63,282 nucleotides of DNA, filler included, from Globobulimina sp. (GCA_003354225.1; 36 parts of 36 records of this genome joined end to end with filler, not necessarily neighbours in it), one strand, 5' to 3'. Shown: positions 14,399-59,764, counted from the whole stretch's first letter. Made by a program: numbers and translations. Notes: a model not told the origin generated them from the letters alone.

Positions 14399-15756
14399 AT
14401 GGCGACAAACACAAAATTGATCTCAAACAAGGATCTAGCAACGAAACTTTCACCTATTCAATGTATTTGTGGTGAATATCTAACAAAAATAGATCTATCT
14501 GATTTTTGCAACGTGCATCACATTCAAGGATTATTATGTGATAATTGTAATTCATGGGGTAAAGAAAATGATATTTTCTGGCATTGTGATGATGAATATA
14601 ATATAGTTCATGTTGATGGTTATGATATTTGTGATAAGTGTGTAAAAAATAATCAGTATAAACAGCAACAATCAAAGCCAAATGATGTAGAGATAGATAT
14701 TGATGATCATCCAAAACAATACGCTCATAAATGCAAAGCTAACGAAACTTGTGAAATATTACATAGATTCTTGGCCGTAGTAAAGAAATATAATGCACAT
14801 AATAGTGAAACTGTACACAATATGGATAATGCAAATGCATTACAAACGTTGGATGATTTTTTCCATACAATGTATGAACATACCACAGACGCACAATTTG
14901 AAAGTATTGTGGAAGGACTCGGATATTGCGACATGAACAGCTGTGATATATTTATGCGGAATAATCGAAATAAAAGCGATGATGGCACAATGCTTCATTA
15001 TATGCATTATGTTATGGATAAAATCCATTGTTATTTCCAGCATTGCTATGATATTGGAAACAGATTATCAGTTAAAGAGAAAATGCAATTAAACACCAAA
15101 TATGCGACGGATGAAAGTGACGAAAAAGATGTATTTAAGCAAGTTTCACTCAACAAACAAATTACAGAAACAAATAAAATGTTACATTCAAAACGGAAAC
15201 GATATAAGAAAATGTGTACAAAATTGGATGCGAATGCGAATGTTATGAGTAAATACAATCAGCTTTATGCATATGACGATAATAAACAAAACGAAGAAGA
15301 TGACATTAAAAAAGCAACCTATAGTTTTGGTTACATGTTTGAATATGGATTTGGTGGAGAAACAGTAACAAATAACAGTATTACCATAAAAGCAAAATAT
15401 GCATCACTTAAACAGGAATTGACACAGAATGATATAGCAACTGTATCAGTACCACAATATAACAATGAATATAATAAAGCTCAACTTCATTTTAACTCAC
15501 GTTATTTTAAACAAAATGAAGAGTTTGCATCGTATAAAGACGATAGCGACGGACTGCGTATAGAATGGGTATTGTATTTAGAATATTTGTTATCAATAAT
15601 GATATATTGCAATTATACTACCCTCCAATATGAATTTAGCAAAACGTACAGAGAAAACAATGGCTTTAAGCATAATAATTTTCTCGGCAAATATTTAAAA
15701 ATATCTGTCCACCATTTTGGTACGAAAATAAATTCGGAACCGGAAGAAATTAATAC
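14399..15756 (+). CDS. Cys/His-finger protein of the same family as 15857-17505; truncated just before the ART-like core
   Basis: N-terminal CxC..CxxC..WHC..H..YDICxxC (ZZ-like finger); shared blocks YSFGYMFEY, KYASLKQE, LLSIMIYCNYT..FSKTYR, KYLKISVHHFG. Confidence 0.65.
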
Positions 15757-15856
15757 NNNNNNNNNNNNNNNNNNNNNNNNNNNNNNNNNNNNNNNNNNNN
15801 TTAATTAATTAANNNNNNNNNNNNNNNNNNNNNNNNNNNNNNNNNNNNNNNNNNNN

Positions 15857-17505
15857 TCTAACCAACCACCATAACCATAATTCTGTTTAATTATTATTCG
15901 ATCAAATGTTTTTGGTAATATTGCTGAATCAATAATTGCTAATAAATTATAAATATTAAATGTACGATATTCATTTGTAATAATTATTATTTCATTCATA
16001 TTTGGAAATAATTCAAATAATACTGGTTTAAATAAATTAATATCATTATCATCAATATCTGAAAAAGATTGTTCTTTCGTTGAATGCATTACCAATGATT
16101 TAAATTTATCATTTTTAATCCCTTGACCGATTTCATATAAATTTAAAACAATTTGTGCTTTCTTGATTGCATATAAATAAAATGTATCATTGATATATTT
16201 ATCAAAATCATTCTTACTTTTTTCTAAAAAATTTCTAATCGATAAATCAATAATATCTGCATCGTCAGTACTTACATCACCAATATAATCAAGACATTGT
16301 CCAGTAATCATGGCATCAAATGAATAATAAGCATGCATATATTTTTTATAATTATTTTTTGTTAGCATAACAATTATGGTTTGAATCTCTAATCGAAAAC
16401 TTCCACCAAATATTAAACGTTCTGCCTCCTCCGGGAAAGTACTCAGCCAGCTACAATCAAAAAAAACTTCTTTTTTACCACTCTCTGATTTATTATTTAA
16501 TTTGATAATCATTCCTTTTTTCTCATCGGTAAATCTGATCGCTATTTCTTTATATTTGCTGGTTGAATTTGGTCCGTTTAATCTTATTGCAAATGATGGG
16601 ATATTCATTAATAGTGACATACCGGTATAAAATGGACCATTTTCACTGCCTTCACCCACTTCTCTCATTCCATTATTTCCATAATATTGTACTAATTCCC
16701 TTAAATATTTAGCAATAAAATGATATTTTGAATTTCTGTGTTTTATACTATTTAATTTTTCATTATTATAAATTGGTCTGAATGTGGATGAGAAATCAGT
16801 ACAAAAAGCTGTGAAATCACAGTATAAAATCACAGAATGCAAATGATGCACAGATAATGGCGTATAATTTTTAATATTATAATGTAAATAATCCCATGTA
16901 CCATAGACAGATTTCATATTTTTACATTTATTTGTCTGAATATAATAATTTGCTTTTCTTATAATTATTTGATTAAATTGTTGCATTTGAATAAATTTTG
17001 AATTGACAGCTTCTTGTTTTAATGATTTATAATATGGAGACACATATAATTGATTCACTGAATAACCTCCAAAATTGTTAATATTATATCCCAACTCATT
17101 TTTTTTATATTGAAGTGGATTAATATTTTTATAATAGTCGTGATACCAAAATAATATTCCAGTGGAAAAGGCAGCCGCTGAAATTTTAGATATTTTAATA
17201 AATTGTCGAATATATTGAATATAAAAATGATTTTCATTTAAAAGATAAAATAAATTACAATTTTTACATTGATAATTTTCAATATCTTGTTTTAATGCAT
17301 CAGTGTCATATTCTTGTAATTGTATAAATTGTTTTAATTTATTTACTAATTTCTTATTATTATTATTTTTATCGCCAACATATTGAATCATATCTTGTAT
17401 AAATGTGCTTCTTTCCTCTTTTCTCTCTCTTTCATTTACATTGATAATAATATTAAATTTTTGATTATTTTCATTATTTAATCTATTTATATTTAAATCT
17501 TTCAT
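15857..17505 (-). CDS. ADP-ribosyltransferase (cholera-toxin/ARTC-fold)-like protein, partial
   Basis: Ordered motifs FYTGMS (16621-16632), GPNSTSK..IAIRF (16558-16566) and SWLSTFPEEAERL (16420-16431) match the YRG / STS / ExE layout. Confidence 0.65.
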
Positions 17506-31240: not shown

Positions 31241-31705
31241 AAATAAAAAAAATGACCTTGTACTTATTATAACTTCTATCTTATAATTAAATTTAAATAG
31301 CAATACAAGGGGTTCCTACTACAATTCGCTCATACAATGATTACAATCGGTGATCTTCCTGCTGGTAAAATCATGCAGATAAATCACGATATTTTTTTTT
31401 TCAAAAGCAAGGTCGGTAATATTTGTAAAAATTTATTACAATGGATTCACACAAAAAGAAGGAAATTTACCATATCGAGGATGATTATTTTGTTCAATCT
31501 CTAATTTATAATTATATTTAGCATATTTGATTGAATGTTTATTTATTAATTCATTTAATGATTTCATACTATTTTTTGGATGCTGAATATCAATCCATTT
31601 CCATGNNNNNNNNNNNNNNNNNNNNNNNNNNNNNNNNNNNNNNNNNNNNTTAATTAATTAANNNNNNNNNNNNNNNNNNNNNNNNNNNNNNNNNNNNNNN
31701 NNNNN

Positions 31706-45687: not shown

Positions 45688-46031
45688 NNNNNNNNNNNNN
45701 NNNNNNNNNNNNNNNNNNNNNNNNNNNNNNNTTAATTAATTAANNNNNNNNNNNNNNNNNNNNNNNNNNNNNNNNNNNNNNNNNNNNTTAAGCTAAGTGG
45801 GGCAAACGGGTCAAAAGGAGTGGAGTAATTCCACTTTTACTGCGTTTTTTTTGGGTAAACTAATTGTTTTTAGACAGACACTGCTGGTCGCATCGCATCG
45901 CTTCGCTTCGCTCGAATAGATTGAGAAACGACAAAATTTAAGACACACAAAAAAAAACAACAAAAAATTCAGTATCAGACATATATAAATTCAATTTCAA
46001 GCAACCAAAAAGAAAGAAAAACATATATTAT

Positions 46032-47447
46032 TCAGGCAGGCCACGTAGAATTGCGCCCATTATAAGTTCTATAAACATCTCTAGCAAAAGTCTTTTTATT
46101 TTGTGTATAAATTCTTAATTGGATCATATATGAAATTTGATTATTTTGATTGAAGCCAAAGCGTAAAATATAAAGAGGAATTTCTTGATTTTTTCTGGTC
46201 ATAAATTGATTTAAATCGGTTAACAGGCAATGATTAAATATTCGATCTTCCATTTGTTTGCATTCTATTTCTGTATTTAATTGTAATTGAAATGGAAAAT
46301 TTGATTCGAGGTTGGCTTGATAGGAAAACTCCAGTTGTTGTCGACACGATTTATCATAAATTTGAGTGTTACCATTATCATTATCATACCAATTCCATTG
46401 CATTTTGGGCTCAGATGCCGGCGATTTACAATGTAAATAATGTTCATTATCGACAATAATCGCATTACATTTGTAGGTTCTCGCCATATTCCACCAAGAG
46501 ATGGAATATTCTTTTTGCGCTAAACGTATTTTGATTGCATTCCGATTAATTGTAAAACCATCAAATTGTGTTCGTAATTCTTTGTGATGTAAAACGGCCA
46601 AAATTGCATTTAAATCTTTTTCATTTTCATCCTCTTCTAATAATTGCCAATAACCTTTTGATTGCGGATAAGTTTGAATTTTCTTCTCCATTTTTCTCCA
46701 TTTTGCCCATTTAAATCCGAATGATTCGATATTGTCAGCCTCGGAAATTAAAAAATTGACTTGTTTTTCATTTCCATTTTTTGTTTTATATAACATGCCA
46801 TTATAATCCATATTATTCTCGTTGGCAATTTGTTGCATTTCCATTTGCGACACGGCGGATAAATCAAACTCAAATCCATTTTGCGTGGCAGTTAAAACCG
46901 CGATCCATTTCACTTTCAATAAAGCGCATTCTTTATAGGTTTGGCTGTTTGTTATGGTCGGAATGCAATTTGTTTGCTGCAATATAATATCTTCCAATTC
47001 CTTCAAAATGGATCGAATTCGCGCCGGGTCCGCAGCTGATAATTGATACGAAAACACAGTCCGCGAACTATGCTGTTTTCGGAACATTGCTTGGAATAAA
47101 TCCAACCAATCCCAGTAATCCGATGCATCCAAATCAATATTTGCCACATTTAGCAACGACGACAATATTTCGTCTTTTTGGGCGATTTTCTTCTTCAACA
47201 CATCGGTTTTATTGAATAGCAGCACAAATTTGCACCGATTGAATCTTTGATCATTGCAATATGTTTTGAATAATTCCAAAGATTGCACAAAATTATTCCA
47301 ATTTGAATTATGTGGATTGATTTCCATAAACGAAGTCAAAGAGATCATAAATATTATCGTATCGATCTCGTTATTCTCGCAATTGTTGGACATGGATAAT
47401 ATCTTATTTTTGCGAGGCAGTATCCAACGAATATGTAAATCCGCGGC
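46032..47447 (-). CDS. G-alpha-like C-terminal half fused to an extension ending in a WWE-like domain, partial
   Basis: IIFMISL, SLELF...CN...F....VLLFNKTD.L..KI, YQLSAAD...I..I...LEDII (G-alpha); QWNWYD.....IYD.....LE.SY...MIQ.......RDVYR (WWE). Confidence 0.7.
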   Translation of the reverse strand, partial: AADLHIRWILPRKNKILSMSNNCENNEIDTIIFMISLTSFMEINPHNSNWNNFVQSLELFKTYCNDQRFNRCKFVLLFNKTDVLKKKIAQKDEILSSLLNVANIDLDASDYWDWLDLFQAMFRKQHSSRTVFSYQLSAADPARIRSILKELEDIILQQTNCIPTITNSQTYKECALLKVKWIAVLTATQNGFEFDLSAVSQMEMQQIANENNMDYNGMLYKTKNGNEKQVNFLISEADNIESFGFKWAKWRKMEKKIQTYPQSKGYWQLLEEDENEKDLNAILAVLHHKELRTQFDGFTINRNAIKIRLAQKEYSISWWNMARTYKCNAIIVDNEHYLHCKSPASEPKMQWNWYDNDNGNTQIYDKSCRQQLEFSYQANLESNFPFQLQLNTEIECKQMEDRIFNHCLLTDLNQFMTRKNQEIPLYILRFGFNQNNQISYMIQLRIYTQNKKTFARDVYRTYNGRNSTWPA

Positions 47448-51067: not shown

Positions 51068-52411
51068 TAAAAGTTTGTCCCAACTTAGACAGCACCTCAG
51101 TTTCAGTGATAATCGAAAGTGAAGTAGGCAGTTTGAAAGTTTTTGGGAACACAGGGAAACGTCATCGAGTGTAGAGGACTCAGTCAATAAAAAATAAAAA
51201 GATAAACTGCACTTGAGAGTATTTTGGAACCTGTTGGATACTCCAGTGCCAGTAGTGGAGAGTGGAGTTGCACCATTGGAGCCAAGTTGTGCGATTAACC
51301 AGTTGATACAATACACCAAACTTTGACCAAGTTGCTTGACGAATTGATCTGAAAATTGTTTACCCGAAAGTAATTTTGAATCAAAAGTCAAATTGTGTGT
51401 CTGTTTGAATGCAGTGAGTACAGTTGACAAGTCAGCACAGTTGTTTGTGGTCAATGTGACAGGCACTACAGTAAGTTGGTAATCAAAGTGCAAAACATGA
51501 GGCACACTAGATACAGTAGTGAGCAAGCGATTGACAACTTTAGCGCGCGAAAGTTTATGGGCAGTTAAGGTTTGTCCCAAATTAGATAGCACCCCAGTTT
51601 CGGTAGTAATCGAAAGCAAAGTTGGCAGTTTGAAAGTTTTAGCGGGTGCGCTAAAAGGAACAGTTGACTTATACCCAACAAAAGAACCATTAATTGAGAG
51701 ACAGTTCAACCCAGTTTTGGAAACAAGTACCTCACAAAGAGGAGTTTTTGAAAAGTTTGCCTCACTTTGAGGGCTTTGAACACAAGTTTGAAAGTTTGCC
51801 TCCTTGTGAGGACTTTGAACAAAAGTTTGAACCGGTACTGTCTCTGAATCATGTTCGATTGTACAAGTGTAGTCTGATGGAAAAGTTTTGCGCGAAGTTT
51901 CAATGCTAGTTTTGTCTAAATAAGCGCTGTCAGTAATAGTCAGAAAGTTTTGGTCAATCAAGTTAACTGCATAGCGCAAAAGTAAGTTGTCGTTTTGAAT
52001 TAGCTTGACTGCGCCATAGTTTTCACCAGTCCAAATAGAATCAATGGAGGAATAAATTTGATCGCATAAATTAGAAGTACTTTCTTGAAAGTAGTCAATT
52101 TCGGCAGTTAACATTGAGACAAAAGTATCTCTACTCCTGACTTTTAAATAAGCAACTTCTACCTCCTCACTAAGATAACCTAGTTTGAGAATTGACGCTT
52201 CAAGTCTATTTGTTGCCTCATATAAAAAGTTAAACAAAAGTTTGAGGTCTGACAAACTACATTGACTGACTGATATTGATTGCTCAAAAAGGAACTGCAA
52301 GTCTAGGATAGATGGTACCTGTAAACATAAGCTGCGTAATGATTGTTTAGCTTGCACATAACGATTTTTGAGTTCACGTACATTGGCCATTATAAAAAGT
52401 TTTTGATTCAA
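51068..52411 (-). other. Long ORF with internal duplications, possibly a degenerate retroelement gag-like gene
   Basis: Coiled-coil N-terminus; 39-bp tandem pair 51752-51829; ~75-bp block at 51068-51143 repeated at 51566-51640 out of frame; base composition differs from other contigs. Confidence 0.3.
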
Positions 52412-52827
52412 AAGTAAAGTTTTTGCTCAAAAGCGAATAGTTTGGCGAAAGTATTTAGGCAAAAACGGAAACAAAAAGTTTTGAATTTGGCGGAGTAAGT
52501 TGTGCCAGTATAAGTTGATGGATAACGAAAGTACAGTGCCAGTATACGGCTGTGCGTAAGCAAAAGTATTGGGAAAATGTGCGTGCCTAGTAGCGATGAA
52601 AGAAGAAGGCAGTTTAGTGTTTTACGTTTGTTTGCGACCAGACGCTTCAATAAGTATAGAAAATAGATGCCAGTGTAATATCGCAAACTAGTTCTAATAG
52701 CAAAGAGAGAAGTGAGCGAGCAAATAANNNNNNNNNNNNNNNNNNNNNNNNNNNNNNNNNNNNNNNNNNNNTTAATTAATTAANNNNNNNNNNNNNNNNN
52801 NNNNNNNNNNNNNNNNNNNNNNNNNNN

Positions 52828-57812: not shown

Positions 57813-58974
57813 CGACTTTAAATAACGGACTTTTTCTGTTTCACCGCTCTATTATAATAGATCTAAATAACTGACTAACGTGTTTTTTTTTTTTAAAATG
57901 GCACAAACAGTTTTTCGTTCGTCTATTGGATAGGGGGAGGACCAACCACATTGCTCACAGATGCCTTGCAATCATTTGAATGTTTATCACAGCAGAAACT
58001 GATTGNNNNNNNNNNNNNNNNNNNNNNNNNNNNNNNNNNNNNNNNNNNNTTAATTAATTAANNNNNNNNNNNNNNNNNNNNNNNNNNNNNNNNNNNNNNN
58101 NNNNNAGAATGTAAATATTAATTGTTTATTTTTTGTGGTATCAGCAGTTGGAATGATTTTTCATGTTTTAAGGTGTAACAAAATTAATTCAACAGCAGTT
58201 CAAATGGTCATCTTTTAAAAAATAAGAGTTGTATTTTCTATGTAAAAACGTACCGCATTGCTCTTTGCTTTTGATGCTAGCAATAAAATTCCAGAATTTT
58301 CCGATGATATAAAATTGCTCAGCTAAATATAACAAATCAAATGAATGCAAAATTTAAAATAGATTTGGACAAATTACATGTCATAATATCTGATAAAGCA
58401 AATGAAGAAATATCAGTGGATGAGTAGTAAAGGTATCATATCTTTGTAAAAAACCATAATAAAATAGCATACATTTTTAGATGGGGTGGATCGAAATATT
58501 GCAATCCAATTTAGAATGTTGACCATTTGGGTTGGCTGTGTATAAAACGAATAAATAATAAAATGAATTTGACAAATACAAAAATGGGTTGGTCATCTGC
58601 AGTGTGTTGGACAGCCGAAGTTTGGATTGCAGCCGAAGTTTGGATTGTGAGATGTTTGGGGAAAAAAGAAAGGATGTTAAAGTTTTTGTTGTTTAATTAA
58701 ATGAGTTTACCATCCGTGATCATGGTTTCTTTTCTTTTTTGGGTTTGCTTTGTCACGTTAACCAAAAGTGTCCATATAATTTCAATAAATGCACATATGG
58801 TGGATATTATGGTCCTGATGAATCAAGTACAATCGAGTGGCCTTACAATGTTGATGTTTATTTTTTTGTACCTAAAGGAAAGATATTGCCAAACAGTATG
58901 TGTTCTGTATGAAAAACCGCATGAATTCCAATTTATACGTGTCAATTTATTAATTATTTAAAAAAATAACCCTT

Positions 58975-59764
58975 TTGTTTAAAGAGGAAGCTTTGCAGAT
59001 GAGTCGATTATTTGAACGAGAAAATTTCGCAATTATTGGTGCGATTTCGACTCTGAGTGGTGTCGAAAAAATTGGTAAAGGTAAACGAATGCCAAATTAT
59101 GCTTTTGAATTTGGTGTAGAATTTGCTATATCGTCTGGTATTTATATAGCGGAAGAAGGTGGTCCTCGTATGTTGTACAGATTACCATCAACAACAGAAA
59201 AACATCCGATTAAATTGGTAGACTTTATTGAAGAATATCCTGCATTAAGGAGTACTGCGGCAGAGACAGAGGCGACAGAGGCGACAGAGCCAGAACTAAT
59301 AATTTTATGGAATTCATGCAGAGAATATTTGGGAAATCCAGCAGAGGCAGCGGGGGCAGCTGCTGCAGAGCCAGAGCCATTTTTTAGTGAACCAACATCA
59401 ATGATATTTTATGAAACAAAAGAAGAGGCATTAGTTTATCAGAAAATCGCATTGGAGCAATGTAGCCGGGATTTAAAAAGGGTAATGATGATGATTACTA
59501 TAAGAGTCCCTGAATATTGCGACGAAATAGAAGCACTCAGATCACAAATTACAGCGGACTTAACACCACCAAAACAAGCTAAACTCCGCCGTCATATCAA
59601 ACGGGCTTTGCGTGAATTGAAGTCTTTCTTGGATCTTCATGAAGCTGCGGAGAGCGCTCGATCCGATGTATGGGAGTGTAGGGGATATTTATATATTGGA
59701 CGGCTAAGATTGGATGAAATGCGGTCATACACAGAAGCAAGCACCAGAGAATTCGGGAAAAAAA
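58975..59764 (+). CDS. Hypothetical protein with A/E/T repeats, partial
   Basis: Open frame to contig end; short gcagag/gcgacagag repeats. Confidence 0.45.

Follow-up and report, generated by a model that had tools for sequence, protein, structure and literature searches.

Two unlinked contigs of the window encode members of one family

The window, i.e., the whole stretch of DNA analysed here, comprises 63,282 nucleotides (filler included) from Globobulimina sp. (GCA_003354225.1; hereafter G000) and consists of 36 contigs of ~1,660 bp joined by spacers. Two adjoining but unlinked contigs carry the open reading frames (ORFs) P0002 and P0001, each encoding part of an ADP-ribosyltransferase (ART)-like protein (Table 1). 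Four blocks recur in the same order in P0001 and P0002, namely FSTGILFWY/YSFGYMFEY, YKSLKQE/YASLKQE, LHSVILYCDFTAFCTDFSSTFR/LLSIMIYCNYTTLQYEFSKTYR and KYLRELVQYYG/KYLKISVHHFG, and P0001 alone of the pair runs on into FYTG, STS and E-A-E, with Thr298 at the canonical Arg position and Ser318, Glu364 and Glu366 intact. The original prediction, read from the sequence, had proposed the shared blocks, the continuation of the longer ORF and the Thr beside intact STS and E-x-E motifs, all of which are confirmed: the two proteins align by pairwise BLASTP (24% identity over 140 columns, E 4e-6) and match the family profile with E-values of 8e-89 (P0001) and 7e-26 (P0002). When 656 six-frame segments of the window were searched with the ART-core profile, P0001 and P0002 were found and no other segment scored at E ≤ 0.05. 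Judged by its nearest paralogues, P0002 is a member of the His subfamily.

Table 1. Features of P0002 and P0001, in coordinates of the window.
Feature	Coordinates	Strand	Remarks
ORF P0002	14399..15756	+	452 aa, ATG start, truncated by the contig edge just upstream of the catalytic strands
ZZ-like Cys/His finger (CxC..CxxC..WHC..H..GYDICxxC), P0002 residues 22-83	14462..14647	+	conserved pattern
Conserved Cys/His domain, P0002 residues 112-224	14732..15070	+	profile E 1e-28; helical in the paralogue model
Helical N-lobe of the P0002 ART domain (YSFG, YASLKQE, YCNY..FSKTYR, KYLK..V..FG)	15320..15724	+	profile positions 1-126, E 7e-26
ORF P0001	15859..17517	-	553 aa, both ends open; C/T/S clade
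Five-helix bundle, EYDxDA motif, P0001 residues 36-113	17179..17412	-	tentatively SAM-like
ART2.2-like ADP-ribosyltransferase domain, P0001 residues 115-400	16318..17175	-	pLDDT ~90; ART2.2 Z 13.1; profile match 94%
Arg247, conserved helix arginine, P0001	16777..16779	-	88% of 446 domains; candidate second NAD-phosphate contact
FYTG, strand 1, P0001 residues 296-299; Thr298 at the canonical Arg position	16621..16632	-	
STS motif, strand 2, P0001 residues 318-320 (Ser318)	16558..16566	-	
E-A-E of the ARTT loop, P0001 residues 364-366 (Glu364, Glu366), entering strand 5; Phe361 kept	16420..16428	-	
C-terminal alpha/beta domain, LFPN motif, P0001 residues 415-552	15862..16275	-	kept in 291/331 domains

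The modelled domain has the fold of the cholera-toxin class

Database searches by sequence rarely name the domain. Pfam returned no match for P0001 or P0002, and 3 of 72 family members matched PF01129 at E ≤ 0.1; one Arg-bearing member, L097, exceeds the PF01129 cut-off (23.6 vs 22.3 bits). Neither the PDB, searched by sequence and by profile (best relevant row the Vis toxin, E 0.72), nor PHROGs named the ART domain. Alkyl_sulf_C, which appeared when the core alignments were searched against Pfam (E 0.003-0.006), lies under the cut-off and is contradicted by the fold. An ESM Atlas feature search led to ART families (0.96), and when the family profile is compared with that of five Arg-bearing G000 ARTs, YxG, STS and E-x-E fall in register (probability 94%, E 2e-7).

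The AlphaFold model of P0001 was built from 72 sequences and has a pLDDT of 90.6. Compared with 48,161 chains, it matches rat ecto-ART2.2 best (Z 13.1, rmsd 3.2, 191 aligned), followed by XopAI (Z 11.0), 6DRH (10.6), HopU1 (10.1) and ExoS (9.2). Because the catalytic half is absent from P0002, its complete close paralogue G000:C2024 (H-type) was modelled (104 sequences, pLDDT 87.5), and the same ranking was obtained, with ART2.2 at Z 13.4 (rmsd 3.6, 196 aligned), XopAI at 11.8 and diphtheria toxin at 6.3. At E ≤ 0.001, Foldseek gave no match for P0001 (best ART2.2, 2e-3) and one for G000:C2024, and a viral structure library yielded weak ART-type rows only. In both models the ART core has six strands, and the triad lies on strands 1, 2 and 5, as described for this core (PMC7827354). 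As modelled, the family fold is that of an ART of the cholera-toxin (R-S-E) class, in agreement with the original prediction.

Class assignment by motif is less simple. The R-S-E class carries an aromatic-Arg motif on strand 1, where P0001 has Thr298; its S-[TS]-[STQ] motif is present (Ser in 198 of the 202 G000 domains defined below, S or T at the third position in 200 of 202), as is the ARTT loop X-X-aromatic-X-X-E/Q-X-E (F361, E364 and E366 in P0001). With the H-Y-E (ARTD) class, represented by diphtheria toxin and the PARPs, the commonest subfamily shares a strand-1 His (122 of 202 G000 domains, P0001 not among them), but the family has Ser instead of Tyr on strand 2 and an ARTT E-x-E throughout, and the diphtheria toxin match extends over 97 residues only. 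Failing the aromatic-Arg test, the family is therefore not filed as a canonical R-S-E ART; despite its R-S-E-class fold, it is neither canonical R-S-E nor H-Y-E.

The closest solved structures differ from the family in several respects. ART2.2 (1GXY; PF01129), a small ecto-enzyme and Arg-specific R-S-E mono-ADP-ribosyltransferase, is the top match of both models, in an alignment that spans the beta core as well as the helical N-lobe and has STS and E-x-E in register, yet it shares 11-14% identity with a family that consists of hundreds of intracellular multi-domain paralogues and has replaced the strand-1 Arg in 195 of 202 domains. XopAI, a Xanthomonas type III effector (6K94/6KLY), ranks second (Z 11.0-11.8) and, like P0001, combines aromatic-Thr-Gly with an intact E-x-E, so that Arg-to-Thr has a published precedent (PMC6829252). 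It differs in carrying Glu in place of the Arg of its second Arg motif, in its Thr, which is uncommon in the family (15 of 202 domains), where His or Cys prevails, and in its degenerate STS, reported as AAS/ATS in Xanthomonas and Acidovorax homologues and SSS in one distant homologue (PMC6829252), whereas STS is intact in the family. Tre1 (6DRH), HopU1 (3U0J) and the ExoS ART domain (6GN0) match with Z 9.2-10.7 over 158-185 residues and, unlike the family, are delivered bacterial effectors with a canonical Arg.

His and Cys, not Thr, are the commonest substitutes for the strand-1 Arg

For G000, 311 fetched loci gave 339 domain hits, of which 202 were resolved at all three positions after duplicates and partial domains were dropped; this set, which includes P0001 and four sister-family members, consists of the top matches of a few seeds and is non-random. 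The tally at the Arg position, a check proposed along with the original prediction, gives His 122, Cys 45, Thr 15, Arg 7, Ser 4, Val 4, Tyr 3, Ile 1 and Gln 1, while the other site residues are kept (198 domains retain Ser, 195 the first Glu and 197 the second). Among 274 distinct domains from outside G000, the same position holds Cys in 115, His in 96, Thr in 33, Ser in 13, Arg in 6 and other residues in 11, and Ser and both Glu are all kept in 267. With His most frequent in G000 and Ser and E-x-E retained, the commonest triad there is therefore H-S-E, which mixes two textbook classes, followed by C-S-E. Thr as the altered first residue thus holds for P0001 and does not extend to the family, where it is a minority state and where the close paralogues of P0002 carry His.

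Conservation is concentrated in the remainder of the site. Ser318, Glu364 and Glu366 fall within the top eight of 240 columns, and the ARTT aromatic is F or Y in 175 of 193 H, 210 of 219 C/T/S and 13 of 13 R domains; Ser and both Glu of the ART2-like domain are under purifying selection. The helix arginine of P0001, Arg247, is kept in 213 of 219 C/T/S domains. Its register fits the second NAD-binding Arg of ARTs (aliphatic-Arg motif), yet the residue before it is aromatic; it is a candidate for the second NAD-phosphate contact.

In trees of 346 and 195 sequences, the C/T/S domains, P0001 included, form a clade (support 0.95 and 0.995), the H-types are scattered outside it and the R-types occur in several places. 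The first residue changes 67 times on one of these trees, against at least 154 times in each of 200 shuffles. Neither tree separates Arg from His at the root.

In sixteen database proteins the ART domain occurs twice or three times, and the copies often differ in type. In these tandem proteins (P0052-P0059, P0075, P0174, P0178 and others), the copies differ in first residue or pair a degenerate with an intact copy in a sensor/executor-like arrangement. Clearly degenerate copies, with S or E lost, are upstream repeats of such tandem proteins, unlike the bulk of the family.

Other ARTs accompany the family in G000. A sister ART-like family on ~35 contigs (L089, L094-L096, L312-L337; e.g., G000:C3231, C11291 and C7123) is also Arg-less (Ser 11, Thr 5 and Ala 1 at the first position in the 17 read) and has S/T-S-W, E-x-E-V-L and, upstream, a Cys/His repeat that ends in YRHPP, with tips that, by eye, include PH and a SAM-like end. 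Read by eye, L092 (G000:C15142) and L093 (G000:C1785) are ankyrin-repeat proteins whose terminal ART-like domain has an altered ExE and, in place of the Arg, an aliphatic residue; they represent a third Arg-less ART family. Canonical Arg-bearing ARTs are present too (L085, G000:C4355; L087, L088, L090 and L091); the L085 contig also encodes ubiquitin-like domains, and by eye the L090 tail resembles a response regulator.

A large, old and intact family in foraminifera

Four protein searches of the G000 assembly (70.2 Mb, 48,370 contigs), each of which scored the top 135-150 out of 285-560 candidates, nearly all of those scored being members, place the family on at least 335 distinct contigs. 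The Chao2 estimate is ~430 member contigs, itself a lower bound because only the best candidates were scored. A 43-core profile searched against 1.84 billion proteins retrieved 5,065 clusters (50% identity) at E ≤ 0.001, of which 2,215 also pass E ≤ 1e-30; the best 150 were listed. The large family that had been predicted from two hits in 36 contigs is thus real, though that ratio is too high: among 7,000 G000 contigs of the same size class, at least 54 (0.77%) carry known members, from which ~0.3 would be expected in 36, and the two in the window were therefore a lucky draw.

The G000 copies are old and intact. Identity to the nearest paralogue has a median of 44% over 303 ORFs and exceeds 90% in 7, and the ratio of nonsynonymous to synonymous substitution rates (dN/dS) has a median of 0.38 over 42 of 45 close pairs, three having been removed with undefined dS. 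In three loci, gaps bounded by GT..AG, as expected in nuclear genes, are seen by eye at a shared place upstream of the FSxG block. Three runs examined for expression contain only short pieces, mostly 85-99% alike and none of them covering the whole gene, and these do not bear on expression either way.

Twenty-eight database relatives were looked up, and all 21 with a named organism are foraminiferan (15 Bolivina argentea and 6 Nonionella stella), in line with the protist, rhizarian setting first suggested. The EukProt sets of these two species presumably derive from transcriptomes. Host-enriched transcriptomes are reported for both (PMC8153729). A pattern search of viral contigs gave 33 matches, none confirmed as a relative, and no relatives were found in phage records; bacterial and archaeal genomes lay outside the search. 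The family comprises hundreds of genes for modular intracellular proteins and may be lineage-specific to foraminifera.

Variable tips on a conserved multi-domain core

From N- to C-terminus the proteins comprise a variable tip, a Cys/His domain, in C/T/S members also a SAM-like bundle, then the ART2-like domain and a C-terminal alpha/beta domain. The Cys/His domain (~115 residues) has the pattern C..H..H..C..C..D..H..H, each position kept in 81-98% of 330 rows, and is a putative metal binder. Of 261 proteins long enough to contain it, 245 have it upstream of the ART domain, and where at least 300 residues follow it was not seen without an ART domain. No Pfam or Atlas match was found for it, and the fold search gave weak coverage (best the ASK1 region, Z 5.8). 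P0002 contains the domain; the P0001 contig ends before reaching the region. Variable N-termini, as originally predicted, therefore hold for the tips and not for the whole N-terminus. The C-terminal domain follows the ART domain in 291 of 331 cases and, in the paralogue model, gives weak, tied LRR-like and Rossmann-like/methyltransferase matches (Z 6.2-6.4).

The five-helix bundle is present in 122 of 134 C/T/S, 7 of 144 H and 1 of 13 R domains. It matches the tankyrase SAM domain (Z 6.6, rmsd 2.5, 62 of 63 residues) and the aIF2-alpha helical domain (Z 6.8), and for P0001 residues 36-113 the SAM rows (Z 5.2-6.6) compare with non-SAM bundles at 5.3-6.8; Pfam SAM gave no match. Tankyrase SAM-PARP likewise has the bundle directly upstream of its ART domain, but that ART is of the other class, and with scores alike for aIF2-alpha and HhH the SAM identity is putative.

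The tips vary widely. The finger of P0002 had been called ZZ-like; its pattern (YDICxxC) is conserved in 24 further rows (E<0.01) with a few duplicates among them, but it does not match Pfam ZZ. Another member, L243, does match Pfam ZZ (E 3e-4) and is outside the 24-row set. In 31 long proteins the tips include PH, Ras/Roc with IBR, CAP-Gly, FN3, PITH and PUB. Among 97 H-type hits, 24 have a Pfam label, which in 10 cases is UBA, PUB, PITH, UCH or OTU, i.e., a ubiquitin, p97 or proteasome module; we take the UCH and OTU names from the accession numbers. A scan of 161 of 367 non-redundant G000 ORFs, those with at least 200 residues beyond the core and Cys/His domain, found UBA (4), PUB (2), PH (2), ankyrin, PDZ, MYND and ZZ. 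By a crude hydropathy test, the N-terminus is hydrophobic in 8 of 217 proteins and a membrane-like stretch occurs in 19, and on best reading the family proteins would be intracellular and cytosolic.

Putative transferases or target-binding look-alikes

The family consists either of unusual enzymes or of target-binding look-alikes. Our best reading, for which the odds are about even, is that the proteins would be cytosolic, modular NAD-dependent mono-ADP-ribosyltransferases. Most members, above all those with H-S-E and the rare R-S-E, would bind NAD+ in the cleft of strands 1, 2 and 5; the second Glu would cleave NAD+, the first Glu together with the ARTT aromatic would select an arginine acceptor, and the lost strand-1 Arg would be replaced by His or by the conserved helix Arg247. 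His is the catalytic-site residue at the strand-1 position in the H-Y-E class (PMC7827354). The variable tips, often UBA, PUB, PITH or similar, may direct paralogues to different cytosolic complexes or serve as baits, and such paralogue-specific recruiters or baits would suggest that the family takes part in defence or in regulated proteostasis. For defence the analogy is with plant receptors carrying integrated domains, in which expansion is likewise combined with shuffled tips. P0001, as a T-type, is more likely than most members to have weak or lost catalysis, and the odds that it is an active transferase fall somewhat short of even.

Several observations weigh against catalysis or against tip-guided recruitment. 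The helix N-x-x-L-R motif of ARTs has Ser aligned at its Asn. The strand-1 Arg, retained in just 7 of 202 G000 and 6 of 274 other domains, is the residue reported to position NAD+ (PMC8120803), and the tolerance of H, C, T, S, R, V, Y, Q and others at this position looks like relaxed constraint. Most of the 161 scanned G000 ORFs show no recognisable tip module, with UBA or PUB in 6, and dN/dS gives no hint of family-wide positive selection (>1 in 2 of 42 pairs). Moreover, XopAI keeps its E-x-E yet is reported as unsuited to NAD+, so a conserved E-x-E is not proof of catalysis.

A more specific reading is rather doubtful: H-S-E might be a catalytically active hybrid class, forming a foraminiferal innate-immune repertoire of hundreds of sensor-effectors comparable to plant NLRs with integrated domains. 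Here the tips, different in each enzyme, would resemble host proteins (ubiquitin, p97, chromatin, trafficking), the Cys/His domain, which belongs to no known family, would be regulatory, the SAM-like bundle would act as a polymeriser in one clade, and the C/T/S members would be non-catalytic or low-activity partners.

The strongest alternative to transferase activity is that the proteins are pseudo-enzymes resembling XopAI, in which NAD+ goes unused and the conserved Ser/Glu/Glu cleft instead holds an Arg residue from the peptide of a partner, making the family an adaptor or decoy repertoire whose C/T/S members the SAM-like bundle would, by extension, polymerise. XopAI, second in both fold searches, has FTG/YTG and an intact E-x-E and binds an Arg peptide in an acidic, conserved cleft reported as unsuited to NAD+, with an enzymatic role left open by its authors (PMC6829252). 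The 7 of 202 domains with Arg fit such a loss, as does the coincidence, in essentially one clade, of an uncharged first residue with the SAM-like bundle. In XopAI, by contrast, STS is degraded to AAS/ATS and the second Arg is Glu, whereas STS and a helix Arg are kept here; a family made up of readers only is therefore less likely than not. His, moreover, is fixed over a large and diverse share of the family, and no sequence similarity to XopAI was found in the PDB sequence and profile searches; any likeness would therefore be convergent. It is for P0001 that the XopAI-like reader is most plausible.

Unlikely is a family of effectors that destroy NAD+ or modify RNA or DNA, triggered through the tip or the SAM-like bundle as a cell-autonomous kill switch. 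The retained catalytic Glu, the huge expansion with shuffled tips and the bundle directly upstream of the ART domain would suit it, but E-x-E with an ARTT aromatic is the Arg-specific pattern, the DNA-targeting enzymes being reported to have Q-x-E (PMC8120803), and the SAM assignment (Z 6.6) is tied with non-SAM bundles. Very unlikely are secreted toxins against prey or competitors: most of the closest solved folds belong to toxins and effectors, but few members have a hydrophobic N-terminus by the crude hydropathy test, no translocation domain was seen and the tip modules are cytosolic ones. Decaying repeats, mobile-element passengers, contamination or assembly redundancy, which the fragmented assembly and stops in 9 of 136 matched rows of one search might suggest, are largely refuted by the long open frames, the divergence and dN/dS of the paralogues, the shared GT..AG gaps, the occurrence in two named foraminifera and the searches of phage records and viral contigs, where no relatives were found.

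The family bears on the basic division of ARTs into R-S-E and H-Y-E. Across thousands of diverged sequences it keeps the R-S-E scaffold, STS and E-x-E with His, Cys, Thr, Ser or, rarely, Arg on strand 1, and so forms a natural series on the need for that Arg and on the boundary between enzyme and XopAI-like reader. Variant triads and pseudo-ARTs as such are already described (bioRxiv 10.1101/2024.07.30.605764; PMC3482391). An H-S-E triad or a foraminiferan ART family was not found in the full-text literature searched, which included few subscription papers. The expansion is very large, unannotated, essentially Pfam-less and found in ecologically important, molecularly little-known protists; if the tips are indeed baits, it would offer a first handle on foraminiferan cell-autonomous defence.

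Other features of the window

At a contig end, positions 31433-31605 (- strand) give a short match to the profile of the family's C-terminal domain (E 4e-6), possibly the tail of a third member. Long ORFs of odd composition at 51068-52727 (-) and 58106-59764 (+) are, by eye, possibly viral, mobile or foreign. The ORF at 45788-47447 (-) appears, also by eye, to begin with a G-protein alpha-like tail that is followed by WWE-like segments.

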